Position numbers and translations under genes: made by a program. Source: Myxococcota bacterium (lineage in GTDB: Bacteria > Myxococcota_A > UBA9160 > UBA6930). Taken from it: a stretch of 64,000 nt of DNA. The DNA is taken from positions 4,384,001 to 4,448,000 of the forward strand of contig OZ245002.1 in the NCBI GenBank assembly GCA_965223415.1. The letters run 5' to 3'. This document shows positions 13,617 through 41,615 of the stretch, in pieces. Numbering within the stretch: the stretch's first letter is position 1; each line of letters opens with the position of its first letter. The notes under the pieces are model-generated. The model saw only the letters and a list, made by a program, of their open reading frames with translations. It searched no databases and was not told the DNA's origin.

Positions 13617-13694
13617 CGCAAGAGTGGGGACGTTCCTTGCATCTTGCGCTTTCGTCAGAAAGCGCAAGATGCAAGGAACGTCCCCACTCTTGCG
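13617..13694. repeat. perfect 37-bp inverted repeat (two inverted REP-like units), possible bidirectional terminator
   Basis: cgcaagagtggggacgttccttgcatcttgcgctttc - gtca - exact reverse complement; lies between convergent genes. Confidence 0.9.
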
Positions 13695-16728: not shown

Positions 16729-16860
16729 GCTCCCAGCCTACCGGACCCGGCCACCGGAAGGGTGGCTCGTCCGCCGGGGCCACCCGCCACGGGGCCGCGC
16801 CGCTCGGGGCAGCGCGACCCAGCGCCGGGGCCGTTCGCCGCGAAGGAAGGTGCGGACACT

Positions 16861-16875
16861 TGGAACGGGAATTGC
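16861..16875 (+). promoter_or_regulatory. sigma-54 (-24/-12) promoter
   Basis: TGGAAC-GGGAA-TTGC with GG-N10-GC spacing, 34 nt upstream of the DUF1302 start. Confidence 0.65.
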
Positions 16876-16908
16876 GATCGCTTCCCGAACGAGGGGACGA
16901 GGAGGCCC

Positions 16909-19900: not shown

Positions 19901-20160
19901 GCCTGACCCTCGTCTACGACGTCGGCTCGGACTCCGGCGCCGTGCTCGGCCAGGTCCAGTACCGCTACTCCAGCAACTTCTCGGCGACCATGGGCTTCGC
20001 CCTCTTCGCGGGTCGCACCCAGCGCAAGGACATGGCCATCAACCCGATCGCCAGCCGCAACCGCACGGGCCGGGGCGCAGGGAAGGACTTCGTCGACAAC
20101 GGGCTCTCCGCCATTCGCGACCGGGACGAGCTCTTCGTGCGCGTGCGGTACTCCTTCTGA
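16909..20160 (+). CDS. large DUF1302-family outer-membrane protein with Cys-rich insertions
   Basis: RBS GGAGG; signal peptide; LKELYVD, LRIGKQTIVWGKT...NPQDL; C-terminal RDRDELFVRVRYSF beta-signal. Confidence 0.75.
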   Translation: MRRGIGAVAAALYGLALWATGAEAIDLWERRVQVHGYYDFQLRALADDLSYADDFDVSQMAHVLNLEVEAALAPNGFGPFDLVSAFARIEARYDCVWTRGCGLFPSINAYGDGAKRYPKRLHNGRRFGYVGGVWAGDTRRWRADPIETFGFSYKDRPEEGRVPSGIQHTEAFWTIFTSPGGDQVLGTADDPSPFYFDRYFQPGRCRFAVKRTQSYTDGVGVFNLGPMDPDCDVEPIAAFIDKPNPFRARDRNPLTGGGGGGALPFRPAPEIAFDSDSPEWIPRGLWIPNPELARLLEDGDLEEPALNFSQDELAWNRGASQGAEKELKELYVDVEMLDSRLWLRIGKQTIVWGKTELFRNQDQWNPQDLALSSLPGLEESRTALWALRAVYSFYNVGPLEDVSLELAVNFDDFEPADLGRCGEPYTVFLVCAGSFGFLAHGFEAKGLAGVRTPPSPWNSWHGLETGLRLEWRWRRFSFSLSDFYGYDDLPYLEKIYTFERNVDPATGRPRRENSRGVCRTGREDACLRAGRDALLHHAANQTLYAKNCASTFGIAALDPSACGLTIFNSQVDTDPTQAAAPRLMIAFANMWAGSLSNFGLSGGGAEVFAGLAAFTPQTTAALARFPWTQTVLGAGPSAGDRTPLVPLSVDLNDGGPSTLPPQFAGDFGVIIWQGSGLQPVLTDEQEALLGCGPFFQTQCDIDGIDLMNAEASAIMQSFVGFDGSSGEDWATTDRSRAQPGTVGFDGGPVCTRYEGGRLHVLPGCRGRGDDGYSVFVDGSTGGALHPFTGQPFRTEMSIFSWNFMMVLVGNSIPKDPNKIRIDEFDPDQAFRSGGCSFAKPQLCHAFSNFWLSVSSKRPTVRAGGNGRFGRRDFQWHDGTPVVTRFQKRNVLGFSMDFAEDVSKSNWALEFTWVDDVLQTDNDEQNGLSEVDTFNLSISADRPTFINFLNANRTLLFNAQVFVRYVSGYRKGFPSNGPWSTLVTLTATTGYFQDRLNPSLTLVYDVGSDSGAVLGQVQYRYSSNFSATMGFALFAGRTQRKDMAINPIASRNRTGRGAGKDFVDNGLSAIRDRDELFVRVRYSF

Positions 20161-24726: not shown

Positions 24727-25105
24727 ATGATCATGGCAAGGTCCAGTCCGCCGTCTACGGGCGTTTCGAAGTGAAGAGCATCGCCAGGTGGCGCCGATTC
24801 ATGGAGCTCCTGTACGGCCTCGAGCTGAAGCCATCGACGAGGCCGGGCGAGTTCGAGGCGGTCGTCGACGACGCGGGCTCTCGGCTGCTCTTCTCCGAGG
24901 GGCCGGCGGAGGATCTCGTCGCATACGGATGGCTCTGTGACTGTCATTTCTCACGGGCATGACTCACCTTTTCTCACGGGCATGACCCAGGCCTGACCGC
25001 GGTTTTCTCACGAGCATGACCCACCCCAGATGGGGGGGGCTCAGGAGGAGGCCGGTCCCGTGGCCGACCCAGGCCATTCTGCGGCGCCAGAGGAGGCGCA
25101 GGCAG

Positions 25106-26818
25106 ATGGCGTATCGCGAGGTCGGCATGTGGGAGATTCTGGAGGTGCTCCGCCGGGCGCACCGAGGCGAGAGCCAGGTGGCGATGGCGCGGGCCACGGG
25201 GCACACGCGCAAGACGATCCGGCGCTACGTGCAAGTCGCCGGGGAGCTGGGCTGGGTCGCCAGGGGGCCGAGGGAGCCGGATGAGGCCCTGGCCCAAGGG
25301 GTGGCGGCTCGGGTGCGGCCTGTGCCCACGCAGCGCGACGCGGGAGAGAGCGAGGCGCAGCTGGCGCCGCATGCCGACCGGATCCGAGCGTGGCTCCAGC
25401 CCGAGGCGGGTGGCCGAGGACTGCGGCTGACGAAGGTCTACGACCTGCTCGGGCGCGAGGGCGTGCGCGTCCCCTACAGCTCGCTCCACCGCTTCGCGGT
25501 CCGCCACTGCGGGTTCCAAGACCGGCGCCGGGTGACGGTGCGCATGGCGGCGGTGGCCCCCGGCGAGCTCGCCGAGGTCGACTTCGGCCGCCTCGGCATG
25601 GTCTGGGATCCGGAGACCGGGCGCCGCCGCACCGTTCATGCCCTGATCGTCACCCTCGTCCATAGCCGCCACCAGTACGTCCACGTGACCTACGGCCAGA
25701 AGCTCCCCGATCTGCTCGAGGGGCTCGAGGACGCCTGGGCGTTCTTCGGCGGGGTCCCGGTGCGCGTGGTGCTGGACAATCTGAAGGCGGCCGTCACGAA
25801 GGCCGACCGCTACGAGCCGATCTTCCAGCGCACCTTCGCCGAGTACGCCCACTACCGCGGCTTCGTCATCGATGCCGCCGTGCCTCGGCATCCCAAGGGC
25901 AAGCCCCACGTCGAGCGCCAGGTGCAGTACGTGCGCGAGCGCTTCTTCCGTGGCGAGCAGTGGCTGGGACGCGACCACGTGCAGCGCGAGGCCGCGCGCT
26001 GGTGCCTGGAGGTCGCCGGCCAGCGCACTCACGGGACGACGCGCAAGAGGCCCCTGGCCGTCTTCGAGAACACGGAGAAGCCGGCTCTGCAGCCCCTCGT
26101 GCGCCCGCGCTTCGATCCGCCCACCTGGGCCGAGGCGAAGGTCCACCCCGACCACCACGTCCAGTTCCAAAAGGCCTTCTACACCGTGCCCACCCGCCAC
26201 GTGGGCAAGCGCGTCTGGGTTCGCGGCGACTCGAAGCTCATCCGCATGTACGTCGACGGCGAGTGCATCAAGACCCACGAGCGCGTGGACCCTGGCTGCC
26301 GCTCCACCGACTACCACGACTATCCGCCCGAGCGTGCCCCCTACGCCATGCGGGACCCGGAAGCGGCGATCCGCCAGGCGCGCGACCAGGGGCCTCACAT
26401 TGGGCGCTTCGCCGAGAAGCTCCTGGCCGGCCCCTTCCCCTGGTCCAAGCTCCGCCAGGCCCAGAAGCTGCTTCGCCTCGGCCACAAGTACGGCCTGCCG
26501 CGCGTCGACGCCGGCTGCCGCAGGGCCCTCGCCTTCGACCTCATCAACACGAAGCGCCTCGAACGCATCGTGGCCGAAGGCATCCAGCCGCTCGGCGACC
26601 CCAGCACCCCCGGACAGCTCCTGCTCCTGCCGCCCCGTTTCCTGCGCCCGCAAGGGCACTTCACCCACCCCAACGACAACCCCGACAAGGAGACCACCCC
26701 CCATGACGACCGAGATCAACCCGTCCCTCAAGACCCTGCTCAAACGCCTGAAGCTCTCGGGCATGCTGGCCACGCTCCCCGATCGCGTGGCCTACACCCG
26801 GAAGACGAAGCTCCCTGA
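25106..26818 (+). CDS. istA: IS21 family transposase IstA
   Basis: N-terminal HTH; EVDFG, VLDNLKAAV, PKGKPHVER DDE motifs; HGTT. Confidence 0.93.
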   Translation: MAYREVGMWEILEVLRRAHRGESQVAMARATGHTRKTIRRYVQVAGELGWVARGPREPDEALAQGVAARVRPVPTQRDAGESEAQLAPHADRIRAWLQPEAGGRGLRLTKVYDLLGREGVRVPYSSLHRFAVRHCGFQDRRRVTVRMAAVAPGELAEVDFGRLGMVWDPETGRRRTVHALIVTLVHSRHQYVHVTYGQKLPDLLEGLEDAWAFFGGVPVRVVLDNLKAAVTKADRYEPIFQRTFAEYAHYRGFVIDAAVPRHPKGKPHVERQVQYVRERFFRGEQWLGRDHVQREAARWCLEVAGQRTHGTTRKRPLAVFENTEKPALQPLVRPRFDPPTWAEAKVHPDHHVQFQKAFYTVPTRHVGKRVWVRGDSKLIRMYVDGECIKTHERVDPGCRSTDYHDYPPERAPYAMRDPEAAIRQARDQGPHIGRFAEKLLAGPFPWSKLRQAQKLLRLGHKYGLPRVDAGCRRALAFDLINTKRLERIVAEGIQPLGDPSTPGQLLLLPPRFLRPQGHFTHPNDNPDKETTPHDDRDQPVPQDPAQTPEALGHAGHAPRSRGLHPEDEAP

Positions 26819-27509
26819 GCTCGACCTCCTGGAGCTCGTCCTTCAGGACGAAGTCGATCGCCGCGACCACAAGAACCTCGAGACGCGCCTTTCCCGCGCC
26901 GGCTTCGAGGAAGAGCAGACCCTCGAGGCCTTCGACTGGGATGCCCCCGTCACCTTCGATCGCGATCGCGTGAAGGACCTCTTCTCCCTCGGCTTCCTCG
27001 AGCGCCACGAGGACGTCATCCTGCTCGGCCCCGTGGGCGTGGGCAAGACCTTCCTGGCCTCCGCCCTGGGACACGCCGCCTGCCGGGCCGGGCACCACGT
27101 CCTCTTCCTCCGCGTCGACCGCATGTTCCACTGGCTCCACCAGTCGCGAGCCGACCTCTCGACCGAGAAGGTCTTCCGACGCCTCCTCGCCCCGGACCTC
27201 CTCGTCCTCGACGACTTCGGCCTCCGGCGCCTCTCCGCCGAGCAGTCGAGCGATCTCTACGAGGTCGTCCTCGAACGCCACCGCCGCGCTTCGACGATCG
27301 TCACCAGCAACCGCGCCATCGAGGAATGGATCCCCCTCTTCGACGACCCCATCCTGGCCCAGAGCGCCCTCGACCGCCTCGCCCACAACGCCTACCAGCT
27401 CGTCATCGAGGGCGAGAGCTACCGCAAGCAACAGCGCCCCGGCGAAATGCCGACCCACACCCCCGCCAATCCCCAGCGCCGAAGCCGCCGCCGAACCCGC
27501 GTCCGCTGA
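26703..27509 (+). CDS. istB: IS21 helper ATPase IstB
   Basis: GPVGVGKT Walker A, LLVLDDFG Walker B, IVTSN, LDRLAH, GESYR. Confidence 0.95.
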   Translation: MTTEINPSLKTLLKRLKLSGMLATLPDRVAYTRKTKLPELDLLELVLQDEVDRRDHKNLETRLSRAGFEEEQTLEAFDWDAPVTFDRDRVKDLFSLGFLERHEDVILLGPVGVGKTFLASALGHAACRAGHHVLFLRVDRMFHWLHQSRADLSTEKVFRRLLAPDLLVLDDFGLRRLSAEQSSDLYEVVLERHRRASTIVTSNRAIEEWIPLFDDPILAQSALDRLAHNAYQLVIEGESYRKQQRPGEMPTHTPANPQRRSRRRTRVR

Positions 27510-28223
27510 CGCCAAACAAGGAGCGTGCTACCTCATCCACCGGCCCGGGACCCATGGGTCAACCCCGTGAGAATACCTGGGTCATGCCCGCGGGAATCGA
27601 CACTGTGACGATCTCGATGGCCTCGAGGAACGCATTCTGGCCTGCGGCGAGAAGGCCGATTGGGCGAGCGACGACGAGGCCAAGGAGCGGGGCGCTGGGC
27701 GCCTGCTTCGAACGGTGGACTCGGAGGGACTCGTCGTCGAGATCGCGGACGCCACGGCATCGCACCATTCGTACGAGGCCCCGCATCACGAACAGACCTA
27801 CAAGACGGGTCGACTCGGCGTCGGCCACTTCTCGTTTCAGTCCGCCGATCTCGACCGCCTCGAGCGGTTCTACGTCGATGCCCTCGGACTCGAGATCACC
27901 GACTACAACGACTTGAACCTGATGACGGGCGTCCGGGTGCGGGTCGGCTTCTACCGGGCGAACCCGAGGCATCACTCCGCGGGGTGCGCGAGCTTCGGAA
28001 TCCCGAGCCGGCAACGCCTGCACCACTTCTTCCTCGAGCTGCCCGATCACGATGCCGTCTGGGGACACCGGATGCCGGCTGCACAGAAGCTGCGCATGCT
28101 TCCGACCGTCGCGCGGGCCGCGGCGGGCCAGCTCCGAGCGCGATTCTCGGGTTAGGCCCGAGGCGGCACGATGACGAACCCCCAGCCACCCAAACAGCCA
28201 TCGAAGACAGGAAGAAGACGGAA

Positions 28224-28670
28224 ATGAGAGCGACGCTCAGTCCCGAAGCCACCTTGACTCTCGAAGAAGCCAACACGATGGCGAGCGCCGCCATCGCCGA
28301 AGCGCGGCGGCTGGAGCTCGCTCCGACTTCGGTCGCGGTACTCGATGCGGCCGGGACGACGAAGGCGATTCAGACCGAGGATCGGGTGGTGCTGATGAGG
28401 CCCCAGATCGCCACGGCGAAGGCCTGGGGCTGCCTCGGCCTCGGCTTCTCGACCCGCTCCTTCACGGGCATGGCAGAGGGCATGGGTCCGCTCTTCCAGA
28501 CCTTCCGCGCCCTCGCCGACGATCGGATCGTCCCGTCGCCCGGAGGCGTGCTGATCTCCCGCGACGGCGTTCTGGTGGGCGGGATCGGCGTCTCCGGCGA
28601 CACCGGCCCCAACGACGAGCTCTGCGCGATTGCGGGCGTCGAGGCGTCTGGCCTCGTCGCGCAGCTCTAG
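28224..28670 (+). CDS. GlcG/HbpS family heme-binding protein
   Basis: VAVLDAAG, IATAKAW, GGVLI...GGIGVSG..DE.CA..G. Confidence 0.85.
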   Translation: MRATLSPEATLTLEEANTMASAAIAEARRLELAPTSVAVLDAAGTTKAIQTEDRVVLMRPQIATAKAWGCLGLGFSTRSFTGMAEGMGPLFQTFRALADDRIVPSPGGVLISRDGVLVGGIGVSGDTGPNDELCAIAGVEASGLVAQL

Positions 28671-28694
28671 CGGGGCCGACCGGGGGACCTGGGC

Positions 28695-29328
28695 ATGCCC
28701 ATTCGCGAAGCGACGGATCCCGAGATCCGCTCCATGACGGGAATCCACCTGTACCACTTCTTCCTGTCGAATCGCGCTCAGCGTGTCTCCCTGACGCTGG
28801 CAGAGAAGGGGCTCGAGTTCACGCCGCACTCCGTCAACCTGCTGACCGGGGCGAACTCCAAGGACGACTACTTCAGGATCAATCCCGCCGGTCTCGTGCC
28901 CGCCCTGGTCCACGACGGTGTGGTGATCACGGAGTCGGGAGATGGCAGAGTTCCACCAACAGGCGACCGCCGGTTTCCCGGAGGCCCGGATTGTCGCTGC
29001 AGAAAGGGATCTGTTCGCGTTCTTCGACCGACTCGAGTCCGAGCTCGGCCAACATCGATGGCTGGTCGGAGACGAATACTCCTACGCTGACATTGCCTGG
29101 TTCGTGCAGTATTTCCTGATGTGGCGCACCGGCATGGTCGACTTCGTGAACTACCCCAACCTTCGTCGCTGGGCCGCGGAGATCATGCGCAGGCCGTCCT
29201 TCGAGCGGGGCATCAGACAGCTGCAATCTTGGTACTCCCCGAACGCCTGCAAGGTACTGAAGATCAGGTCGCGCATTCGGCGGGGCGGACCGATGCCGAA
29301 GCAGGCAAGGGCGCCCGTCGCGGGGTAG
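28695..29328 (+). pseudogene. glutathione S-transferase, split by a deletion/frameshift near 28940
   Basis: N-domain (INPAGLVPALVHDGVVITES) and C-domain (WLVGDEYSYADIAW, YPNLRRW...RPSF) in different frames, intervening helices missing. Confidence 0.75.
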
Positions 29329-29380
29329 GGGGATCTGCCGGGCCGGCATCTGGCTCGGTCGCCTCGAGCGGCCGCGGGTC

Positions 29381-30460
29381 TCAGATGCCGCTCACCCCGG
29401 CGCCAAGGCGCCTCATGTCCTCCAGAAGGCGCCTTGGATCGACCGCACACCCCATGTAGTGCAGGCCGGGCCGTCGGATCGAGCCATCGAGGAGCTGCAA
29501 CAAGCAGGCGACCAGCGGAATCGCCGTGATCTCGTATCCGTCCTCGTGGGAGACGAGCAGATCGAGACGGCGCGGGGCTCCGTCGCCGCTGCCCTCGGCC
29601 TCGAGCTTGATCCGGACGCCGTGGGGCGCTCTCGTGAAGCGACGATTCGCCCGCACCATGAGCCTCGCACAGGCCCGAACCGCGCTGTCGAACCGTCCGA
29701 GTCCCGTCGTCGCGAACGTCATGAGCAGCAGATCGACGACCGGGTTGACGCCAGCCACGTAGGCCGCGAGGCGTTCCATTCCGAGCTGTTCGGGCAGCTC
29801 TCGCAGCTCGATCAGATCCGTCGGGAAACATCGATGCGTGCCGAATGGATCGCCGAAATCGAAGCTTCGGGTCGCCATGAGGCTCGCCCTCCGCCAGCCC
29901 CCGGCCTCGTGAACGGAAGCCGGGGTTGCCACCTGTCGCACCATGTCGAGTGCAGAACCCAGCGCGCTGTCGGACTCCTTGATCAGGGCCGAGACAGCAG
30001 CTGCGCGAACCTCTCCGAGGCGATCCGCTGCGAGCCGTACCAGGGCCGACGGCAACCCGGGCAGCGCTCCGGCCTCCGTCACAAAGCAGCGACCGGACTG
30101 CTCGATCCTGGGCGTGAGGAGCTGGAGCGCCTGGGCCTTGAGCGGACCCAGGCTGATGTCGATCCAGTCGATGCCAGCCTCGATCGCGGTCTGGGCCACG
30201 CCGTGCGCGATTCCTTCGAGGGGAATGCAGACGATGATGAGATCGCACCCTTCCAACCCCGCTCCAAGGGATGCCGTGTCGTTGGCGTCGACCTGCGCCG
30301 CACCCACGCGATCAGACCCGAGCTCGGCCGCCGCCGCGCTCGCCTGCTTCGCATCTCGGCCGGCGAGGGTAACGTCGAGTGAAGTCTCGCGAAGCAGCAG
30401 CCGCGCAATGGCCCGTCCCGCAGCACCGTACCCTCCGAGAATCAGCGCTTTGTCTGCCAA
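29381..30460 (-). CDS. saccharopine dehydrogenase-like NAD(P)-binding oxidoreductase
   Basis: LGGYGAAG, LAGRD, EAGALPGLPSAL. Confidence 0.75.
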   Translation of the reverse strand: MADKALILGGYGAAGRAIARLLLRETSLDVTLAGRDAKQASAAAAELGSDRVGAAQVDANDTASLGAGLEGCDLIIVCIPLEGIAHGVAQTAIEAGIDWIDISLGPLKAQALQLLTPRIEQSGRCFVTEAGALPGLPSALVRLAADRLGEVRAAAVSALIKESDSALGSALDMVRQVATPASVHEAGGWRRASLMATRSFDFGDPFGTHRCFPTDLIELRELPEQLGMERLAAYVAGVNPVVDLLLMTFATTGLGRFDSAVRACARLMVRANRRFTRAPHGVRIKLEAEGSGDGAPRRLDLLVSHEDGYEITAIPLVACLLQLLDGSIRRPGLHYMGCAVDPRRLLEDMRRLGAGVSGI

Positions 30461-30593: not shown

Positions 30594-31835
<1,242 letters not shown>

Positions 31836-31869
31836 GGGGGCTCCTGGGTCGCGGGGTGAACACGCCTGG

Positions 31870-31885
31870 AGCAAAGGGCGTGCCG
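31870..31885 (-). promoter_or_regulatory. sigma-54 (-24/-12) promoter upstream of the bEBP gene
   Basis: Minus strand CGGCAC-GCCCT-TTGCT, 35 nt upstream of the ATG. Confidence 0.7.
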
Positions 31886-32177
31886 GGGCTGCGCTCCTCT
31901 CCGCGCGTGCGGGCGCCGAGGTGGCCAGGACCGGCCGGCCGGGGCCGGCCCTGGCCATGCGAACACGCGGTCTCGCGCGCCGGGTAGGGGCCAGCGAGCC
32001 GCAGCGACGCCTGCCCGCCGCTGCACGGCGCCGCCCGACCGGGTCGGCCCGTGCGGCGCCGGCCGCCTACGTCGGGGCTGGGAGCGACACACGAGCCCGC
32101 GGCGATCGCGTTCGCGTCGCGCGGAGGCGGAAGGCGCCTCGCGCTTCACGCCCCCGCGGACGCCGGTCCGCGGGCCG

Positions 32178-32217
32178 AAAACGCAAGATGCAAGGAACGT
32201 CCCCGGTCTTGCGTTTT
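32178..32217. repeat. single REP-like unit with 11-bp terminal stem
   Basis: cgcaagatgcaaggaacgtccccggtcttgcg is 30/32 identical to 13663-13694; flanked by aaaa/tttt. Confidence 0.8.
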
Positions 32218-32219
32218 GG

Positions 32220-32678
32220 CTAGGGGGCGGGGAGGAGGAGGCGCTGGCCGGGGACGAGGCGGTCGGGGTCGTCGATGCGGTCCCGGTTGGCTTCGAGGAT
32301 GCGCTCGGCGTCGGCGGCGGAGCCGTAGTGGTCGCGGGCGATCTGGACGAGCCAGTCGCCCTCGCGGACGGTGTAGTGGCGAGGAGACTCGGACGTCGTG
32401 GTCGTGGCGGTGTGGTAGGTGGGGTCCGGGTCCTCGGGCTCGGCCCGTTCCTCGCGGTCGAGGGTCTCCGGGGGCGCCGCCTCCATGGCGATCGGCTCCT
32501 CGGCCTCGGTCTCCTCGTCGGCGGGCTCGCCGATCTCCACGAGCAGCACGTCCCGGCGCTCTGCGGGAGGAGCCGCGACGTCGGGCGGGGGAAGGGCGGC
32601 CGGTGGCGCGCTGGGCTCGGCACCGCATGCCCAGCTCGAAGCGAAGAGTGCCACCGCCGCCAACCACGCCGATCGCAA
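32220..32678 (-). CDS. LysM domain lipoprotein
   Basis: Lipobox-like SWAC; acidic/Pro linker; HYTVREGDWLVQIARDHYG...ILEANRDRIDDPDRLVPGQRL. Confidence 0.85.
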   Translation of the reverse strand: MRSAWLAAVALFASSWACGAEPSAPPAALPPPDVAAPPAERRDVLLVEIGEPADEETEAEEPIAMEAAPPETLDREERAEPEDPDPTYHTATTTTSESPRHYTVREGDWLVQIARDHYGSAADAERILEANRDRIDDPDRLVPGQRLLLPAP

Positions 32679-32732
32679 GCTCTCCCCTCCACGCCAAGGG
32701 CCAGCGCGTCGGAGCGTCCAGTCAGCGATGCG

Positions 32733-35700
32733 CTAGCGCCGCTTCCGCCAGAACGAATGGAAGCGGCCGCAATCGAGCTTACCCAGGGGAGCACCCAAAT
32801 CGGTGACGCCGCGCACATCCACCAGCTCCTGGCCCTCGAAGCAGCGGTCGACGCTGCCGTCGCGGGTCGAGTCCTCGCACTGCAGGGTTACGGCCCCGCC
32901 GGAGACGTACTGGATGACGTCGGCCTTGCCGTCGGCGTCCGTGTCGATCTCGTTGCGGGCCACCTGACCGCCCTCGAAGATCTGGCGGATCTCACCCTGG
33001 CCGTTGCCGTTCTGGTCGATCAGGCCCTCCACGACGACGCCGCCGGCGAGGCGGTAGCGGATGTCCAGGCTGCGGTTGCCGTCGCTGTCGACGCACTGGC
33101 TGCGCGCCGCGCCGCCCGGCTCGAGGAAGACCTTCACGTCGGGACGCTTCTTCCCCTCACTCACCAGCTCCTGGTGGGTGGCGACGCCGTTGGGGCCGAA
33201 ACGGCTCAGCACGGTCGCGTGGCCGGCCTTCCGCTGGTCCATGGCCTGCCAGGTCATGACGCCGTTCTCCTGGTGGGACCAGAGATCGAACTTGCAGTCG
33301 CCGTCCTGGTCGACGGCCTGGTCGCTCAGATCGCCGTTGCGGTCGTACTGCTCCTCCAGATCGAAGCAGCCCCGCAGCTCGCGATCCTGGCGCACGAGAC
33401 GCGGCTTGCCGTTCGGGCCGAACTCCGTGAGGGCGTCCTTCTTCCCGTCGTGGTTCCGGTCTTCCTCCTGCCGGACGACGACACCCTCCGCGTCCGTCGT
33501 CACCCACAGGTCCGGCCGGCCGTCCCCGTTGCGATCCTGGGTCTGTTGCTGCGTGCCCCCCTCTCCGAGGGCCACCTGGATCTCGAACACGCCGTCGAAG
33601 TCGTCGTCCTGCTCGACGAAGGCGGGCTCGCCGTTCTCGAAGCGGGTGCGCACGTCTGGCTGGCCGTCGCCGTTGCGGTCGCGCTCGCTGCGCACCGGCA
33701 CGCCGCCCTCTAGGAAGGTGCGGGTCTCCCGGCTTCCGTCGCCGTCGCCGTCTTCCAGGATCTCGGCGGGCTCCTCGTCCGGTCCGAAGGTCGTCTCGAC
33801 GTCGATCTGGCCGTCGAAGTTCCGGTCCTCCCGCTGGACGTGCTTTCGCCCCTCCCGGTAGGCAATCAACACGTCGGGCTTGCCGTCGCCGTTGCCGTCG
33901 CGCTCGGAGCGGGTGGGCTTGCCGCCCTCGAGCCAGGTGGTGAGCTCGAAGCTTCCGTCGAAGTCGCCGTCCTGCTCCTCGCGGGAGGCGGTGCCGTTCT
34001 CGTAGTGGCGCCGCAGGTCCGGCTGGCCGTCGGCGTTGCTGTCGACCTCGTCGCGCACGGGCGCCTCGTCGGTGCCGTAGAAGACGATCTGGTCCACCCG
34101 GCCGTCGCCGGTCGTGTCCTTCTCCTGGCGGGTGCGCCGCCCGGCCCCGAACAGGAGGAAAGTGTCCTTCTTCCCGCTGGCATTCGTGTCCAGCTCCTGC
34201 CGGACCATCTCGCCCCCTTCGAAGAGGGAGAGAACGTCTGGCTGGCCGTCGCCGGTGGTGTCCCGGCGCTCGCGGACCTTCTGGCCGTTCTCGTACTCGA
34301 CCTGGACGTCGAAGCCCCCGCCATCGCCGGTGGCGCGCTGCTCGGCCACCACCTGACCCTCTGCGTCGAGGCTGCCCTTCACGTCCGGCTTGCCGTCGAA
34401 GTCCGTGTCCTCCTGGAAGCGGACGGCCCTGCCCGCTTCGTAGAAGACGACCCGGTCCGCGTCTCCGTCTGCGTTCTTGTCCTCCTCGAGCCGCTCCGTC
34501 GCACCGCCGGCGCCCTTCGTCACCCAACGGTCCACCTTGCCGTCGGCGTCCGTGTCCTCGAGGAGCCGGCGCTCCTCCCCGGTGACGACGTCGAGGGTGA
34601 CGAACTTGTCCGGCTGGCCGCTTCCGTCCGTGTCCTGCTCCTGCTTCTCGAGCCGGCCCTCCGGGTCGTAGAAATTGCGCAGCTCGAAGCCGCCGTCACC
34701 GTCCTCGTCGAGGTCGACCCGCAGGAGCCGGCCCTCGCCGTGGAGCTCGATGCGGTCCGGGCGGCCGCGGCCGGCCCGGTCGATCTCCGTGCGCGCGAGC
34801 TGGCCCTGCTCGTAGCGGCTCTGGGCCTCGAAGCGGCCGTCGAAGTCCGCATCCCGTCGCGTGCGCAGCAGCGCCTCGCCGTCCGGCGCGTACTCGAACT
34901 CGGCGTCGATCTTCCCGTCGTCGTTCTGGTCTTCCTTCTGGACGGAACGCTTGCCGGCCTGGAACTCGACGAAGGTGTCGCGGCGGCCGTCCCGGTTCGA
35001 GTCCGCCTCGGTTTTCAGGATCATGTCGCCGGCGAACCAGGTCTCGAGGTCGACCTGGCCGTCGTCGTCCTGGTCTTCCTCTTCCCGGGCTTTCTGGCCG
35101 TTCTCGTAGTGGCGGGCCAGGTCGATGCGGCCGTCGTCGTCCGGATCGAAGCGCTCCTGCTCCCGGTCGCCGTTCGGGCGGTAGAGCACCACGGCTTCCG
35201 GCGTCCCGTCCCGGTCCTCGTCCTTCACCTGGCGCCGCTCGCGGCCGTCCTCGTAGCTCGACTCGGTATCGAAGCGGCCGTCGTCGGTGGTGTCGGCCCG
35301 CCGGGCGACGATCTTGTCGTTCTCGTAGTCGGTGACCACGTCCACCTTGCCCGAGTGGTTCGTGTCCTCCTCGACCCGGGCCTTCCGGCCGTTCCGGAAG
35401 CGGATGGTGACGTCGAAGCGGCCGTTTCCGTTCGTGTCCTGGAGCTCCAGGGTCTTGGTGCCGTCGGGCTCGTACTCGGCGCGGAACTCGGGCTTGCGGT
35501 CCCCGTCCTCGTCTTCCTCGACGATGGCCGGCTCGCCGCCGGCGTAGGTGACGCGCCGCTCGATCGTGCCGTCGAAGTCCGGATCCTCCTCCTTGCGGAC
35601 GGGCACGCCGTTTTCGTAGAAGAGGGTGGCGTCGGTCTTGCCGTCGAAGTTGTGGTCGTCCCGCTGCTGGGCCGGCTTGCCGTTCTGGAAGTCGATCCAC

Positions 35701-36011
35701 TGGTCCTTGCGGCCGTCGGCATTGGTGTCCCGCTCCTGGAGCTTCGGCTGGCCCTCGCCCTCGAAGGCGATCCAGGTATCGACCTTTCCGTCGAAGGTGG
35801 TGTCCTGCTCGGCCTTCACCGGCTGGCCGCCCTGGTACTCGACGAACTCGTCGTAGCGGCCGTCCCGGTTCGTGTCGGCCTTCTTCGACTTCACCTGCTC
35901 GTTCTCGTCGAAGTCGAGCACGGTGGGGGCGCCCTGGGCCCAGGAGGCGAGGGGAAGGGCGGCGAGCGCTGTAAGAAGCAGCGCGAAGGGGGCGAGCCGG
36001 ATGCTAGTCAA
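32733..36011 (-). CDS. exported 1092-aa protein of ~42 tandem Dx[DN]xDG repeats
   Basis: Signal peptide; ~22-23 aa period (EDxDxDGxxDxxxxYxxG); Cys-containing C-terminal cap; start overlaps upstream stop. Confidence 0.85.
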   Translation of the reverse strand: MTSIRLAPFALLLTALAALPLASWAQGAPTVLDFDENEQVKSKKADTNRDGRYDEFVEYQGGQPVKAEQDTTFDGKVDTWIAFEGEGQPKLQERDTNADGRKDQWIDFQNGKPAQQRDDHNFDGKTDATLFYENGVPVRKEEDPDFDGTIERRVTYAGGEPAIVEEDEDGDRKPEFRAEYEPDGTKTLELQDTNGNGRFDVTIRFRNGRKARVEEDTNHSGKVDVVTDYENDKIVARRADTTDDGRFDTESSYEDGRERRQVKDEDRDGTPEAVVLYRPNGDREQERFDPDDDGRIDLARHYENGQKAREEEDQDDDGQVDLETWFAGDMILKTEADSNRDGRRDTFVEFQAGKRSVQKEDQNDDGKIDAEFEYAPDGEALLRTRRDADFDGRFEAQSRYEQGQLARTEIDRAGRGRPDRIELHGEGRLLRVDLDEDGDGGFELRNFYDPEGRLEKQEQDTDGSGQPDKFVTLDVVTGEERRLLEDTDADGKVDRWVTKGAGGATERLEEDKNADGDADRVVFYEAGRAVRFQEDTDFDGKPDVKGSLDAEGQVVAEQRATGDGGGFDVQVEYENGQKVRERRDTTGDGQPDVLSLFEGGEMVRQELDTNASGKKDTFLLFGAGRRTRQEKDTTGDGRVDQIVFYGTDEAPVRDEVDSNADGQPDLRRHYENGTASREEQDGDFDGSFELTTWLEGGKPTRSERDGNGDGKPDVLIAYREGRKHVQREDRNFDGQIDVETTFGPDEEPAEILEDGDGDGSRETRTFLEGGVPVRSERDRNGDGQPDVRTRFENGEPAFVEQDDDFDGVFEIQVALGEGGTQQQTQDRNGDGRPDLWVTTDAEGVVVRQEEDRNHDGKKDALTEFGPNGKPRLVRQDRELRGCFDLEEQYDRNGDLSDQAVDQDGDCKFDLWSHQENGVMTWQAMDQRKAGHATVLSRFGPNGVATHQELVSEGKKRPDVKVFLEPGGAARSQCVDSDGNRSLDIRYRLAGGVVVEGLIDQNGNGQGEIRQIFEGGQVARNEIDTDADGKADVIQYVSGGAVTLQCEDSTRDGSVDRCFEGQELVDVRGVTDLGAPLGKLDCGRFHSFWRKRR

Positions 36012-37131
36012 GGGTGTTGGTGAAGCTGCCGAACAGGTTGTGGTTCGCGAGGCAGCGCACCTGCGGCCCCATGTGGCTGAAGGGCGAGGCCGCCAGGAGC
36101 GCCTCGACCGCCGCCTTGCCCGCCGCCGGATCCGAGCCCGAGTCCACCACCGACACGCCGCTGGCGGAGCCGGCGGGATCGATGCGGAAGCGGAGCTTTG
36201 CGGTGGACGTGCGCACGCCCTCCGGCAGGATCCAGCGGGAGAGCGTCCTGTCCTTCACCCGGGCGAGGTAGGCGTTCACCTCGGGCCGGGCCAGGCAGGC
36301 GTCGAAGCTGACGGCCCCCGGGCCCCGGCCGTCCCCGCCGACGCCGGCGCCGCCCATCCTGCCGAGGTTCATGTTCGGGTTGGCGACGACGCCCTGGTCC
36401 GCCCCGAACACGTCCCGGCTCGACGCGATGCCCTGGCGGACGCTCGAGCCGCTGCCGAGAGAGTTCGGACCGGCGGTGCCGATCGTGTTGCCCGAGGGCA
36501 CCACCTGACGCGGGCCGCTCACCACGCCGACCGGCGCCTGGTGCTGGATCGGCCCGGCCAAGGCCGGGCCCTGGTAGTTGGGGACGACCGGGGCCGTGGT
36601 CGCACTCGCCACCGAGGCGACGCGGCCCGTCGTCTCGACGGTGACGGAGCGGAAGTCGACCTGGGTCGGCGCGACGGTGGGCGCCACGACCGCGGTGTCG
36701 ATCCGGGCCGCTTCGACGGGCTGGGCGAAGTCCTGGATGACCGTCGGGTTCACGATCTGCGGGGCCATCGCCATGGGCGCCGGATCGAAGGCGGCCAGGC
36801 TCTCGGCGATGGCGGTGGGCGCCGGCGCGGGCTCCTCCTCGCTGGCCACCTCCTCCGGGAGGATCAGCTCGATGATCTTCTCCTTCTCCTCCTCCGGGAT
36901 CTGGCTGGCGATAAAGAGAAGCAGGGCGATGGCGCCGCCGTGGACCAGGAGCGAGATGCCGCTCGTGACCCAGGCCCGCCCGCCGCCTTCGGGATCCGGC
37001 ATCTCCGAGCCGGGGAACGGGATCGCCTCGCCGGAGGAGGCGCCGCCGTGGGCGCCCACGGCGCCGATGCGCCGGGTCCGCATCGGGTGGTTGCGCTTCG
37101 GGCGCAGGCTGACGACGAATCCAGCGGTCAT
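36004..37131 (-). CDS. TonB/TolA-like energy transducer
   Basis: TM segment with S-x3-H (SLLVH); Pro/Ala/Gly-rich spacer; C-terminal YLARVKDR...W...LRFRIDPAG...V..SG...AVEALLAASPF. Confidence 0.75.
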   Translation of the reverse strand: MTAGFVVSLRPKRNHPMRTRRIGAVGAHGGASSGEAIPFPGSEMPDPEGGGRAWVTSGISLLVHGGAIALLLFIASQIPEEEKEKIIELILPEEVASEEEPAPAPTAIAESLAAFDPAPMAMAPQIVNPTVIQDFAQPVEAARIDTAVVAPTVAPTQVDFRSVTVETTGRVASVASATTAPVVPNYQGPALAGPIQHQAPVGVVSGPRQVVPSGNTIGTAGPNSLGSGSSVRQGIASSRDVFGADQGVVANPNMNLGRMGGAGVGGDGRGPGAVSFDACLARPEVNAYLARVKDRTLSRWILPEGVRTSTAKLRFRIDPAGSASGVSVVDSGSDPAAGKAAVEALLAASPFSHMGPQVRCLANHNLFGSFTNTLD

Positions 37132-37419
37132 CGGGCGCTCCCCCTGCTTCGAAGGCTCGGAACCCGCCTGGGGGCGCGCGGTTCGGAGCTTCGGGGTGCG
37201 TTCGGCCGGCCGGGCGCAGACGCCCGCAGGGAGCCCTTCATAACGTGGCAAGAAAGACGCAACTTACCGGCACCATTGTGGATTTTCCGACCCCGGAGCG
37301 ATCCTATGGGAGCCACCCGGGGGTGTCAACGAGGCACTCACCTCTGTAAGGTAGGTCGACTTCGAGGCCCGGTTGGTGTCGGTGGGTCCACACCGGGCAG
37401 GGGGAACGAGCCCGTGAAC

Positions 37420-38097
37420 ATGGAACTCAACGAGCTCCTGGAGCTCCTGCACCAGGGCCGGCTCACGGTGTACCCGCTCGGGGTGCTCTCGGTGATCGTC
37501 TTCGGCATCGCCATCGAGCGCTTCTGGAAGTACCGCGGGCTCGACCGCGCGACGCGGGATCTGACCCGGAAGCTGGTCGACACGCTCGTGCGTCACGACC
37601 TCTCCGCGGCCCGCACCCTGTGCGAGGCCTCGAGCACGCCCATGTCGGAGGTGTTCGGCGAGGGCCTGCGCTGGCGCAACATCGCGTTGGAGGATCTCCA
37701 CGAGGTGCTCGCCACCGCCCGCAACGAGGTGGTGACCGAGCTCCGGCGGGGGCTCTGGTTCATCGGCACGATCGGCTCCCTGGCGCCCTACATCGGGCTG
37801 CTCGGGACCGTGGTGGGCATCATGGTCGCCTTCGGCGCCATCGCCGAGAGCGGCGACGCCGGCTTCGAGGTGGTCTCCGCGGGCATCTCCGAGGCGCTGA
37901 TCGCCACGGCGGTGGGCCTGCTCGTGGCGATCGTGTCCCTGGCGCTCTTCAACTTCCTGCAGGTGCGGGTCAACACCATTGCGTCGACCTTCTCCCGGGC
38001 CAGCGAGCGCTTCGTCCAGGCGCTCCTGTTCGTGGAAGCCGGCACCGAAGGTGACAAGGAGGCGTCCCATGGCGAACTCAGTCCCGCACGAGGGTGA
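37420..38097 (+). CDS. MotA/TolQ/ExbB proton channel protein
   Basis: TIGSLAPYIGLLGTVVGIM, GISEALIATAVGLLVAI. Confidence 0.92.
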   Translation: MELNELLELLHQGRLTVYPLGVLSVIVFGIAIERFWKYRGLDRATRDLTRKLVDTLVRHDLSAARTLCEASSTPMSEVFGEGLRWRNIALEDLHEVLATARNEVVTELRRGLWFIGTIGSLAPYIGLLGTVVGIMVAFGAIAESGDAGFEVVSAGISEALIATAVGLLVAIVSLALFNFLQVRVNTIASTFSRASERFVQALLFVEAGTEGDKEASHGELSPARG

Positions 38098-38494
38098 CGA
38101 CGCCGGCGGCATCGTCGCCGAGATCAACATCACGCCCCTCACCGATGTCTTCCTCGTCCTGCTGATCATCTTCATGGTCACGTCGTCGGTCATCGCGAAC
38201 ACCGGCAAGAACGTGAACCTGCCCGAGGCGGTGGAGAGCTCCCAGACGCCCAAGCAGGCCGTGAACGTGACGATCACCGAGGGCGGCGAGGTCCAGATCA
38301 ACGGCGCCGATGTGGCCTACGACAACCTCTTCGCCCACCTGAAGGCCGCCCTCGACGCCGCCGAGCAGAAGACCGTGATCCTCCGTGGCGACCGCAAGAT
38401 CTACCTCGAGAGAGCGGTCCACGTCCTCGACCAGGCCCAGCTCGCCGGCGCCGAGGGCTTCGCCCTCGCCACCAAGAGACCCGGCAAGAACTGA
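38069..38494 (+). CDS. ExbD/TolR family protein
   Basis: EINITPLTDVFLVLLIIFMV with conserved Asp; VNLP; LRGD. Confidence 0.92.
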   Translation: MANSVPHEGDDAGGIVAEINITPLTDVFLVLLIIFMVTSSVIANTGKNVNLPEAVESSQTPKQAVNVTITEGGEVQINGADVAYDNLFAHLKAALDAAEQKTVILRGDRKIYLERAVHVLDQAQLAGAEGFALATKRPGKN

Positions 38495-38512: not shown

Positions 38513-40051
38513 TCAGCGGCTGCGGGACCAGAGCAGGGCGGCGGCGATGAGCAGGAGCTCGGGGAGGAGCAGCCCCAGGCTCTGGTACATCGTGAGCGTG
38601 TTCGGCAGGGCCAGGGGGAACTGGGACTTGCCGGAGATGCCTTCCTTGGGGCGGATCGTGAGGTGGGGCGTCCGCTCGGCGGCCCAGTGGACGGCGTTGA
38701 GCACGAGATCGAGGTTGTAGAGGGAGCGCAGGTAGTGGTTGGAGGCGAGGTCGGCATCGCCGAAGGCCACGATGCGGGTCTCGCCGGCTTCGCGCGGGTA
38801 GGCGCCGGCGACGACGAGGGGCCAGTAGTCGCGGTCGACGTCCGGGGGCGGAGTGGGCGCGGTGTTCGACCGCACGGCGGCGGCCTCGGGGACGATCCAC
38901 GAGCGCGGGCTCGCGAAGGCGACGCCGCGGATCTTGTCACCGATCTGCGGCTTGCGCAGGCGGAAGCTGCGCACGCCCTTGAAGAAGGTCATGCGGTTCG
39001 GTCCCAGGCCCTGGCCGACGGGATGGGAGGGGCTGTAGCTGTAGGAGAGGGGCGCCAGCCCCTTCGCCAGGCCCTCCAGCTCGCCGGACGCCGGGTCCAC
39101 GACCGCCCCGGGAAGCGGCTCGAGGCCCCACTCGGCGAGCACCGCCTCCAGGCCGGTGTCCGAGCCGGGCTCGACCATCGCGACCAGGCGCCCTCCGCCC
39201 GCCAGGTAGCGGCGCAGGGCGGCGCCGGCTCCCTCGGCCAGGCCGCGCTCTGGCCGCACCCACAGGACGACGTCCGCGTCGGACGGGATCTCCGCCGTTG
39301 CCGCGCTCACGAACTCGCGCACCTCGTATCCCTCGGTCTGGAGGGCGGCAGTGAGCCCCGAGAACCCCGTGTCTCCCGACGCGCTGAAGTCTCCCTCGCC
39401 CGCGCCCCGGGCCACGTAGACCGTGCCGCTCTGGAGCTGGCGCAGGCGGAAGAGGGCCTCGTAGAGGGCGCCCTGGGTGGGTCGCTCGACCGTCTCCCAG
39501 CTCTCCCGGCCCTCGCGCCGGAGCGTCAGGACCACGCTGTTCGAGGAGCCGATGGCGAAGCGGTCTTCGTCCTCCGGGTGGTCGTCGATGCGCCGCTCGT
39601 CGAAGCCCAGGCAGCTCGCATTGCCCAGGGTCCGCAGCAGGGAGCGGGTGGCGCGGATGCGCGGATCGAGATCGTCGTAGTAGAGGCCGGCGTGAAGCTC
39701 GCCCTGGCCGCACAGGTCGTCGAGGGCGGCTTGCAGGGCGTCCGCCACCTCGTACTTGTTCTCGAAGCTCCAATCGAGCTGCACGTCGCTGCGGGCCGCG
39801 GCCCGCTCCAGGGCGACGGCGGCCAGGAGCGCGAGGGCCACGCGCCCGAGAGCACGCAGCACGGGCCTCCGGAAGGCCGGCGCGCCGGCGCCGCGCGCCC
39901 GCAGCAGCGCCTGCACCGTCGCGACGGCGACCACGAGCCCGCCGCCCACCAGGTTCACGCGAGTGAACCAGGTGCGCTCACCGCTGCCCGCCAGGGCCGC
40001 CGCGCCGAAGGCGAGCATCACGAGCCCGCACAGGACGATGCCCCGTCTCAT
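38513..40051 (-). CDS. GldG-like ABC-type uncharacterized transport system protein
   Basis: N-terminal TMs, DWSFENKY, YLAGGGRLVAMVEP, RIVAFGDADLASN, NLDLVLNAVHW, C-terminal TM. Confidence 0.8.
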   Translation of the reverse strand: MRRGIVLCGLVMLAFGAAALAGSGERTWFTRVNLVGGGLVVAVATVQALLRARGAGAPAFRRPVLRALGRVALALLAAVALERAAARSDVQLDWSFENKYEVADALQAALDDLCGQGELHAGLYYDDLDPRIRATRSLLRTLGNASCLGFDERRIDDHPEDEDRFAIGSSNSVVLTLRREGRESWETVERPTQGALYEALFRLRQLQSGTVYVARGAGEGDFSASGDTGFSGLTAALQTEGYEVREFVSAATAEIPSDADVVLWVRPERGLAEGAGAALRRYLAGGGRLVAMVEPGSDTGLEAVLAEWGLEPLPGAVVDPASGELEGLAKGLAPLSYSYSPSHPVGQGLGPNRMTFFKGVRSFRLRKPQIGDKIRGVAFASPRSWIVPEAAAVRSNTAPTPPPDVDRDYWPLVVAGAYPREAGETRIVAFGDADLASNHYLRSLYNLDLVLNAVHWAAERTPHLTIRPKEGISGKSQFPLALPNTLTMYQSLGLLLPELLLIAAALLWSRSR

Positions 40052-40845
40052 CCGGCGATCCGCCGCCAGTCCAGGGCGAAACGCGCCAGGGCGTAGGCCA
40101 CGAGGGCGACGCCGACGAAGTAGACGAGGTTCGCCAGGTTGACGATGCCCTCGGCGAAGATCGAGTAGCGGGGGTGGATCGAGATGGCGTCGAAGAAGCG
40201 GGCCACGCCCTCCGCCTCGCGCAGGAACGGTGTGAGCCAGCTCCAATCCCACAGCACGAAGCCCACCGCCCAGGAGGCCACCACGGCGATGAGCTGGCTT
40301 GAGGTCCAGGCGGAGCACACCAGGCCGATCGATGCCAGGGAGATCGCCAGCAGCGTGAGCCCCATGAACACCGAGAACAGGTGCTGGAGCCCGATTCCGC
40401 CCTGGAGGATCGCGAGCGCCGGGTAGACGAAGCTCGCGAGCATGGCGACGACGACGAAGAGGTAGGTCACGGCGAACTTCCCGAGCACGATCTCGTGGTG
40501 GGAGAGCCGCGTCGTCACCAGCAGCTCGTCGGTGCCGCGCGCCCGCTCCTCGGCGAAGACGCGCATCGTGATCATGGGGATCACGGCGATCAGCGTGATG
40601 CCGAGGTTCTCCATCACCGGGAAGAAGACCGTGTCGCGCAGGTTCACGTGGTCCGGAATCGTGTCGGTCTCGAAGCCGCCCATGGTCGACGACTGGAACA
40701 GGAACAGGATCTGGTTGTAGGCGCGCAGGTGATCGAAGAAGATCAGGCCCGCCACGAGCACGACGAGGGTGAGCACCAGGTAGGCGAGGGGGGAGCCGAA
40801 CAGGACGAGGAGCTCCTTGCGCATCAGGGCGCGGAGCCGGCTCAC
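40048..40845 (-). CDS. ABC-2 type permease (GldF-like)
   Basis: RKEL..LFGSPLAY, PMITMRVFAEERARGTDELL, IVLGKF. Confidence 0.88.
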   Translation of the reverse strand: MSRLRALMRKELLVLFGSPLAYLVLTLVVLVAGLIFFDHLRAYNQILFLFQSSTMGGFETDTIPDHVNLRDTVFFPVMENLGITLIAVIPMITMRVFAEERARGTDELLVTTRLSHHEIVLGKFAVTYLFVVVAMLASFVYPALAILQGGIGLQHLFSVFMGLTLLAISLASIGLVCSAWTSSQLIAVVASWAVGFVLWDWSWLTPFLREAEGVARFFDAISIHPRYSIFAEGIVNLANLVYFVGVALVAYALARFALDWRRIAG

Positions 40846-41615
40846 GCTGCGTGCTCCCCGCGGAAGAGCGCCAGGGGGTCGTTGCCGCCCAGCACCTCCG
40901 CCGTCGCGCCCTCGGTCACCAGGGCTCCCCGGTGCAGCACGGCGGCCCGCTCGCTCAGCGCTCGCGCCTCCGAGAGATCGTGGGTGCAGAGGATCAGCGT
41001 GTGTCGGCCGTGCAGCCCCCGCAGCACGCGGCGCACCTCCTCCTGCTGGAGCGGATCGAGGCCGCTCGTCGGCTCGTCGACGATCAGGAGCGGCGGGTCG
41101 AGCAGGAAAGCCTGGGCCAGGGAGACCCGCTGCTGGAAGCCCTTCGAAAGCTGGCCGATCCAGCGCCCGGCCACGTCCTCCAGCGAGAAGCGCTCGATCA
41201 CCCGCTCGATGGCGGCGTCCAGGTCTCCGCCGCCGAGATCCCGCGCCGCGCCCGCGAAGCGCAGGAAGGCGCGGACGCGCAGGTCCGGATAGATGCGCGA
41301 GGTCTCCGGCACGTAGCCCAGGCGGCGGCGCACCTCGGCCGGCTCGCCGGCCGGCGAGAAGCCGTCGACCCGCACTTCGCCGCCCGAGGGCAGCAGCACG
41401 CCGGTCACGAGGCGGATGAACGTGGTCTTGCCGGCGCCGTTCGCTCCCAGCAGGCCGAAGGCCTGGCCCGGCTCGATCTCCAGGTCGAGGTGGTCCAGGG
41501 CCACGTGGCTGCCGAAACGGCGCGAGACCGCGCGCGCGGCGACGTGGGCCCCCTTCTCGGCAGCGTCCGCTCGCTCCGACGCCGCGCCGGTCTTCCCCTG
41601 TTCCTCGCTGCTCAC
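40842..41615 (-). CDS. ABC transporter ATP-binding protein (GldA-like)
   Basis: GANGAGKTT, LSKGFQQR, IVDEPTSGLDP, TH. Confidence 0.92.
   Translation of the reverse strand: MSSEEQGKTGAASERADAAEKGAHVAARAVSRRFGSHVALDHLDLEIEPGQAFGLLGANGAGKTTFIRLVTGVLLPSGGEVRVDGFSPAGEPAEVRRRLGYVPETSRIYPDLRVRAFLRFAGAARDLGGGDLDAAIERVIERFSLEDVAGRWIGQLSKGFQQRVSLAQAFLLDPPLLIVDEPTSGLDPLQQEEVRRVLRGLHGRHTLILCTHDLSEARALSERAAVLHRGALVTEGATAEVLGGNDPLALFRGEHAA

Follow-up and report, generated by a model that had tools for sequence, protein, structure and literature searches.

Tol and Ton are the two textbook routes by which energy of the inner membrane is brought to the outer envelope of Gram-negative bacteria. In the Agl-Glt gliding machinery of Myxococcus xanthus, a member of the same phylum as the bacterium treated here, a TolQR-type motor is combined with proteins that carry TonB C-domains. 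A survey from 2025 argues that further Tol/Ton-like systems remain to be found (PMC12204202). It also describes vWA force transducers, which are encoded next to tolQ/tolR-like genes and whose C-domain has the vWA fold (PMC12204202, Mol Biol Evol 2025).

Here we describe a gene module from a stretch of 64,000 nucleotides (hereafter the window), which spans positions 4384001-4448000 of contig OZ245002.1 (assembly GCA_965223415.1) in the genome of a Myxococcota bacterium (5.83 Mb in a single contig, 71% G+C). The module consists of an ExbB/ExbD motor pair, a TolA/TonB-like force transducer (the anchor) and a large exported repeat protein (REP). With moderate confidence we favour the reading that it is a dedicated force-transduction module of the Tol/Ton type, in which REP is the target of the anchor, a lipoprotein with the same repeats probably taking part, and which likely performs structural work in the envelope. 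A candidate proton-driven envelope machine had been proposed for this locus from the DNA letters and their translations (the original prediction). That motor, anchor and REP behave as one dedicated unit is supported by the comparative data: the genome has Tol, Ton and Mot systems of its own elsewhere, the genes are adjacent in all 20 loci fetched from related genomes, they stay linked after rearrangement, and they are jointly absent from one genus.

Genes of the module

Window genes were picked by a GC3 filter and by their translations, and the Pfam scan took in 22 open reading frames (ORFs) of the window. The motor is encoded on the forward strand by an exbB/tolQ-like gene (37420..38097; 225 aa; Pfam MotA_ExbB, 4.8e-31) and an exbD/tolR-like gene (38069..38494; 141 aa; Pfam ExbD, 2.7e-28), which overlap by 29 nt. 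This pair is divergent from a run of three genes on the reverse strand. The first is the anchor gene (36004..37131; 375 aa from the ATG at 37131; Pfam TonB_2), whose longest ORF starts at a TTG at position 37251. It is followed by the gene for REP (32733..36011; 1092 aa), the start of which overlaps the anchor stop by 8 nt, and by a gene for a LysM-domain protein (32220..32678; 152 aa; Pfam LysM, 3.9e-8). The five genes and their positions, the divergent arrangement, the length of REP and its coupling to the anchor gene had all been predicted and agree with the ORFs and Pfam matches.

Conservation and linkage

The fetched loci are 20-kb stretches, one each from 20 genomes of the window's order. 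REP, anchor, ExbB and ExbD are adjacent in every one of them, the anchor having been found by tblastn in 19 loci and by ORF reading in the 20th. Strong REP matches are present in 36 of 41 relatives; the other five are metagenome-assembled genomes (MAGs) that are 75-90% complete. In a sample of 300 other genomes of the phylum, REP was detected in 49 of the 57 genomes of the class and in none of the 243 elsewhere. All 49 positive genomes belong to the window's order or to one family of a sister order. A wider locus scan, seeded with the ExbD alignment, yielded 30 Myxococcota-type loci (labelled uncultured Myxococcota or 'Deltaproteobacteria' MAGs), 26 of which contain REP, while the other four are cut by contig ends.

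Rearranged versions of the module were also found. In three genomes of the sister order, the genes for the anchor, REP and a 420-aa lipoprotein with the same repeats are convergent with a vWA-ExbB-ExbD set, and ExbB shares only 30-33% identity with that of the window. Of 14 loci with 52-60% G+C (mostly labelled Binatia), 11 hold a complete operon of another layout, and the remaining three are cut by contig ends. This Binatia-type operon starts with the genes for a REP-like protein of 395 aa and a repeat lipoprotein of 373 aa, continues with those for a TonB-like anchor, ExbB and ExbD, and adjoins a vWA gene. A full-length homolog of the repeat lipoprotein is encoded elsewhere in the window genome (L117:6396-7763), with 35% identity over 428 residues (E 5e-70). 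Another gene of the genome, L116:7204-8709, was considered as a component and dropped; it resembles the cluster lipoprotein through the repeats only.

Five genomes (92-99% complete) of genus g30, which belongs to the same order, were searched for the parts of the module. REP was found in none of the five (nor in the six of the phylum sample), and the anchor profile and the repeat lipoprotein were likewise found in none, with no repeat matches at all. A motor ortholog was not found in these five genomes, which hold only ExbB at the level of paralogs (37-45% identity). Five REP-positive genomes of the same family served as controls: the anchor was found in all five, each time beside REP, and the lipoprotein in all five at a separate locus.

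These data bear on the explanation that the genes are neighbours by descent only and that REP has no functional tie to the motor. The locus lies among housekeeping genes, serA and purA being present around the module in the window, and the order of these genes is kept across the order, so a common gene order inside a single class could reflect inheritance instead of selection. However, the linkage persists after rearrangement in the sister order and in Binatia-type genomes, where the neighbours are different, and all parts, including the unlinked lipoprotein, are jointly not found in genus g30. With linkage that survives rearrangement and parts that are missing together, the comparative support exceeds simple neighbourhood, and we regard shared descent alone as highly improbable.

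The motor

The residues taken as the proton path were chosen in part from section 8 of PMC12204202. They are intact, in keeping with the original prediction: Asp D26 in the transmembrane (TM) segment of ExbD is invariant in 21 of 21 sequences, and T130, T163 and E158 of ExbB are invariant in 18 of 18. ExbB orthologs within the order share 54-86% identity. The best NCBIfam match of ExbB is tolQ (111.8 bits, cut-off 221), and that of ExbD is tolR (86.1 bits, cut-off 127.3). The scores for the Ton equivalogs are 79.3 bits for exbB (cut-off 206.2) and 58.6 bits for ExbD_1 (cut-off 152.95). None of these cut-offs is reached.

A quick IQ-TREE phylogeny of 77 ExbB sequences places the REP-linked motors of Myxococcota in one clade (SH-aLRT 99) and the Binatia-type motors in another (SH-aLRT 100). 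Both lie inside a 58-row clade (SH-aLRT 92), which they share with motors adjoining other partners. TolQ of the window genome falls just outside this clade, and its own ExbB sequences and MotA are further out; long branches make the deep placements in this tree unsure. Judged from these sequences, the motor belongs to a TolQ-near clade, outside the genome's own TolQ, ExbB and MotA.

Another orphan-motor arrangement was seen in Binatia-type MAGs, in which exbB-exbD pairs of the same subfamily are followed by the gene of an AAA ATPase of ~500-570 aa, without a TonB-like gene (loci L068, L074, L090, L096 and L109, at ~8300-11000 in each).

The anchor

The anchor just exceeds the Pfam cut-off for TonB_2 (22.3 bits, cut-off 22), while its match to NCBIfam tolA_full (1e-7) remains below the cut-off (31.5 bits, cut-off 59.45). 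Its TM segment contains the motif S60-x-x-x-H64. All 25 orthologs aligned keep H64, which confirms the SxxxH helix named in the original prediction. The alignment of these orthologs additionally features a basic cytoplasmic motif, an FPG motif, a GSSVREGIxSxRDVxG motif and two invariant Cys residues, C279 and C360. The C-domain probably carries a disulfide.

In the AF2 model, a TM helix (residues 50-76) is followed by a disordered region (77-270) and by a C-domain (276-375) with a pLDDT of ~90. The linker of ~200 residues is rich in Ala, Val, Pro and Gly. The closest structural matches of the C-domain are TolA domain III structures, with Z 12.1 (rmsd 2.3 over 89 residues, 2x9a_B), 10.8 (6s3w) and 10.7 (1tol). 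The second-ranked match, 6s3w, is TolA domain III bound to the N-terminal peptide of TolB. TonB C-domains rank below TolA (Z 9.7-7.7, rmsd 1.9-3.1 over 72-85 residues). When 1.84 billion proteins were searched with a profile of the anchor, only 107 cluster representatives were obtained at E<=1e-30, which indicates that the anchor family is small.

Other Tol, Ton and Mot systems of the genome

Five MotA_ExbB matches were found in the genome. The other motor loci are a TolQ-TolR-TolA-TolB-CpoB cluster, MotA-MotB among flagellar genes and a TonB2-like Ton locus, so the motor of the module is a fourth, separate one. The canonical tol cluster, TolB included, is located ~222 kb upstream.

The Ton locus (contig 3674401-3692400) encodes two ExbB proteins, a long one with ~230 additional periplasmic residues at its N-terminus and a short one, followed by ExbD, TonB and a TPR protein, and it adjoins a TonB-dependent receptor. 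We take this set to resemble the TonB2 genes of Vibrio. The contig region 2106901-2124900 carries genes for MotA/MotB, FliL, FliN, FliP, FliQ, FliR and FlhB. Myxococcota are usually described as non-flagellated.

Genome-wide, 4 Plug-domain, 2 TonB_C and 8 OmpA-domain matches were obtained, none of them within the window. The statement of the original prediction that no receptor or Pal is present thus holds for the window, since all Plug and OmpA matches lie outside it; TolB is known from the canonical tol cluster, no genome-wide search for further TolB copies having been made.

The anchor could alternatively be an extra TonB that serves receptors encoded elsewhere, as part of an accessory Ton system. 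REP would then be an accessory factor, such as a periplasmic calcium store, a scaffold or a regulator, in the manner of the additional proteins that belong to TonB2 of Vibrio. Such a role would fit the TonB/TolA topology and His motif of the anchor, the fact that its C-domain also matches TonB C-domains (Z 9.7-7.7), and a genome with four receptors and only two motor loci of the ExbB type. On the other hand, neither the window nor any of the 20 fetched loci showed a receptor, within the reach of the tblastn queries and of the Pfam scan downstream of REP, and the canonical Ton locus adjoins a receptor elsewhere in the genome. In addition, the C-domain fits TolA better than TonB (Z 12.1 vs 9.7), and the tree places the motor apart from the ExbB sequences of the genome itself. 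We consider an accessory Ton system rather unlikely.

The repeat protein

REP has a signal peptide, followed by ~42 units of 24 aa, each consisting of a DxDxDG-type loop and a hairpin. Strict D-x-[DN]-x-[DNS]-G loops were counted 29 times, and a looser pattern 36 times, with a spacing of mostly 24-25 aa. To judge from the loop motif alone, these loops probably hold calcium. The mature protein has a mass of 119.6 kDa, a pI of 4.44 and a net charge of ~-110. All six Cys residues are located within the last 211 residues. The length of REP is 1082-1112 aa in 27 of 29 orthologs.

Both ends of the protein are conserved. The mature N-terminus follows the pattern P-V-V-L-x-[YF]-D-[DE]-x-E. The C-terminal tail reads C-G-x-F-x-x-F-W-basic, in which C1080, G1081 and W1087 are invariant (last 12 codons, 32733-32770, reverse strand). 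This tail, for which no profile match was obtained, is reminiscent of a MYXO-CTERM-type sorting tag (Cys plus basic residues) in strongly shortened form.

The AF2 model, built with 29 orthologs, shows two strands and a 9-residue loop per unit (pLDDT 87.3, pTM 0.37). Local matches to single-layer sheets were obtained with VIA-align, namely to TarM/SdgB (Z 10.8-9.1), to OspA and engineered OspA (Z 10.0-8.5) and to the MORN repeats of junctophilin (Z 6.7). The top Foldseek matches were Rhs, teneurin and Tc shells, with E-values down to 7.6e-23, yet with TM-scores of ~0.1 and an rmsd of ~59. From the model, REP is read as a long single-layer beta-ribbon, the global shape of which is not reliably modelled.

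REP has no Pfam match at E<=1, RHS_repeat and MORN_2 included. No solved structure is related to it by sequence, the only matches being EF-hand/lanmodulin chains at E 0.002. A search for homologous proteins gave only four matches of similar length, and whole-genome searches were more useful. The only named match is NCBIfam Lsa25.6 (NF050087; 1.1e-27), with 96.9 bits against a cut-off of 150 and the best stretch at residues 165-225. The repeat unit is common to REP and Lsa25.6, the family not.

That the nearest named family is Lsa25.6, a family of Leptospira surface adhesins, raises the question of whether REP is a surface or released adhesin or a calcium-stiffened surface fibre, with motor and anchor powering its passage across, or retention at, the outer membrane. 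The signal peptide, the restriction of Cys to the C-terminal end and the conserved tail, which could be a sorting tag, are in line with such a location. However, the genes seen in the conserved core include none for an outer-membrane channel or for secretion, and the adjacent ABC-2 transporter is missing from 6 of the 20 loci. The tight length of REP also appears unlike that of typical adhesins, which would be expected to vary. A surface protein is an improbable explanation.

The LysM gene and the repeat lipoprotein

The LysM gene is located behind REP in no more than 3 of the 20 fetched loci and in 2 of 11 short loci of the same family, as well as in loci L038, L041 and L042. Elsewhere, the Pfam scan of genes downstream of REP shows unrelated followers. 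By gene order, the LysM gene is a lineage-specific rider outside the conserved core. Of the predicted co-occurrence with the motor, the part concerning REP holds (20/20 loci) and the part concerning LysM does not. Since the LysM gene accompanies REP so rarely, anchoring of the partner to peptidoglycan through LysM, as put forward in the original prediction, has no comparative backing.

The protein had moreover been called a LysM lipoprotein. Its LysM domain is supported by Pfam, whereas its status as a lipoprotein is not established: the Cys is preceded by S-W-A instead of L-[AS]-[GA], the usual pattern of a classical lipobox. The repeat lipoprotein is the better candidate for an anchor point.

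Neighbouring genes and further features of the window

Downstream of exbD, GldA/GldF/GldG-like ABC-2 transporter genes are encoded on the reverse strand (38513..41615). They match NCBIfam GldA (7.5e-55) and GldF (4.7e-31), both under the cut-offs, and Pfam ABC_transp_aux (1.3e-18). The transporter adjoins exbD in 14 of the 20 fetched loci and is thus a frequent, not a universal, neighbour. On the other side of the module lies a gene for a sigma-54 enhancer-binding protein (activator; 30594..31958, reverse strand; Pfam Sigma54_activat, 6.1e-70). Twelve of the 20 fetched loci have an ortholog of it (at least 48% identity) downstream of REP.

A sigma-70-like promoter facing the anchor-REP-LysM genes is suggested by a consensus match at 37301..37329 (reverse strand), which consists of TTGACA, a 17-nt spacer and TAGGAT and agrees at 10 of 12 positions (1 site vs 0.1 expected in shuffled sequences). 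No sigma-54 promoter was found in the divergent intergenic region, and the whole window contains 40 matches at <=2 mismatches vs 44 expected. Directly 3' of the LysM stop codon there is an inverted repeat (32178..32217, reverse strand) with an 11-bp stem, AAAACGCAAGA / TCTTGCGTTTT. It possibly marks the end of the operon; a terminator scan of the window called no terminator, this inverted repeat included.

The sequence CGGCACGCCCTTTGC at 31871-31885 (reverse strand) is one mismatch away from the sigma-54 promoter consensus used in the search. It is situated ~36-50 nt upstream of the likely ATG (~31835) of the activator gene, so that this gene may itself be under the control of sigma-54. The 15-mer GGGGACGTTCCTTGC occurs three times in the window, at 13626-13640 (forward strand), 13671-13685 (reverse strand) and 32190-32204 (reverse strand). 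The first two copies form an inverted pair and the third is part of the hairpin loop behind the LysM gene; GGGGACGTTCCTTGC may be a small repeated extragenic element.

A gene at 25016-26818 (forward strand) encodes a protein with a Mu-transposase C-terminal domain (2.4e-16). The adjoining stretch at ~26500-30000 has a G+C content of 0.66-0.68, compared with 0.71 for the genome, and gene and stretch together may represent a mobile-element insertion upstream of the neighbours of the cluster. A 1275-aa protein encoded at 16333-20160 (forward strand) matches only DUF1302 (2.6e-18).

Proposed mechanism

In the favoured reading of a dedicated module, the proton-driven ExbB/ExbD motor would drive the TolA/TonB-like anchor through contact with the His residue of its TM helix. 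The target of the anchor would be REP and not a TonB-dependent receptor. Most likely, the C-domain would capture the mature N-terminus of REP by strand addition, like TolA domain III with the N-terminus of TolB. We draw this analogy because of the position of the genes, the TolA-like C-domain and the conserved mature N-terminus of REP. The lipoprotein with the same repeats, which is unlinked here and part of the cluster in other lineages, would provide attachment on the membrane side. The likely output is tethering, spacing or remodelling of the envelope rather than nutrient import; the original prediction had named envelope remodelling, transport or motility as candidate outputs.

A more far-reaching version is possible, and we put it forward tentatively. 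The module would be a third Tol/Ton-like trans-envelope system, in which the motor pulls on REP as a calcium-stiffened 'tendon' docked on a lipoprotein made of the same hairpins. This would provide a force link between the membranes alongside Tol-Pal, with a single origin and later rearrangement in Myxococcota and Binatia-type lineages.

Several results weigh against the favoured reading. The REP-linked motors of Myxococcota and those of the Binatia type do not come out as sister clades in the ExbB tree; with p 0.068 in the AU test, a single REP-linked clade is neither rejected nor shown. Eight of 11 other loci of the ExbB/ExbD subfamily have an AAA ATPase or vWA and TPR genes and no REP (five with an AAA ATPase gene after exbD, three with vWA plus TPR or Kelch genes), so this type of motor is not specific to REP. 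The low pTM of REP (0.37) means that its overall shape is not reliable. The genomes compared are kin and not independent, and the counts overstate the number of independent observations. Finally, the genome has a second canonical TonB without motor genes listed beside it, and the module motor could therefore also serve ordinary TonB proteins. Among the rival explanations, an accessory Ton system ranks first in likelihood, followed by a surface protein and by mere neighbourhood.

Comparison with known systems

The module shares with Tol-Pal a motor pair of the 5:2 type and an anchor in which a long linker joins a His-containing TM helix to a TolA-III-like C-domain. The gene of an exported soluble partner lies directly behind the anchor gene, which puts REP in the position of TolB, and the best NCBIfam matches of the motor are tolQ and tolR. 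It differs in that the scores for tolQ, tolR and tolA_full are all under the cut-offs, that REP is a predicted beta-hairpin ribbon whereas TolB is a propeller, and that the module locus has no TolB, Pal or CpoB. Furthermore, motor and anchor genes are transcribed divergently instead of forming one operon with the motor genes upstream, and the canonical tol cluster is separate.

With Ton systems, the module has in common the motor domains, the S-x-x-x-H motif of the TM segment and the fold of the C-domain (Z 9.7-7.7). In contrast to Ton, there is no receptor in the module locus or the window, the scores for the exbB and ExbD equivalogs are far below the cut-offs, and the Ton locus of the genome is made up differently, of a TonB2-like set.

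The systems with vWA force transducers (PMC12204202) are likewise orphan TolQR-like motors with a non-receptor partner. Motors adjoining vWA and TPR genes, a type that matches these transducers, fall into the same wider ExbB clade as the module motor, and a vWA gene stands beside the motor in the sister-order and Binatia-type versions. Pfam scans of the window ORFs showed no vWA gene at the window locus. Unlike the vWA transducers, the anchor of the module has a TolA-like C-domain, and the novel part of the module is a separate repeat protein. A term search of the main text of the survey found no mention of calcium, EF-hand, hairpin or Binatia.

Compared with the Agl-Glt machinery, the module locus showed no TPR, barrel or cytoplasmic parts of the Glt kind in scans with general profile libraries, in which no Agl or Glt profile turned up. 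The lineage of the module also carries flagellar genes.

The hairpin-after-hairpin antiparallel sheet modelled for REP is like the central sheet of OspA, MORN, Rhs-YD and Lsa25.6 repeats. A regular DxDxDG loop, present unit after unit, is not known from the OspA, MORN, Rhs/YD or Lsa25.6 families. Rhs shells differ further in the TM-score of ~0.1 and the lack of a RHS_repeat match at E<=1, the global shape of REP being unreliable (pTM 0.37).

A literature search by title and abstract, under the themes of ExbB/ExbD/TonB-like systems with calcium repeats or Myxococcota, found no description of the module among the papers listed. Taken together, motor and anchor are of a known kind, while the REP partner and the assembly are undescribed. 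In comparison with the established systems, a standard motor and a TolA-like anchor are paired here with a partner of an uncatalogued fold family, a large hairpin ribbon of conserved length with putative calcium loops. If the anchor truly grips this ribbon, the module would offer a new and simple substrate for studying how such motors apply force, and it would point to an envelope function in widespread uncultured lineages of soil and sediment.

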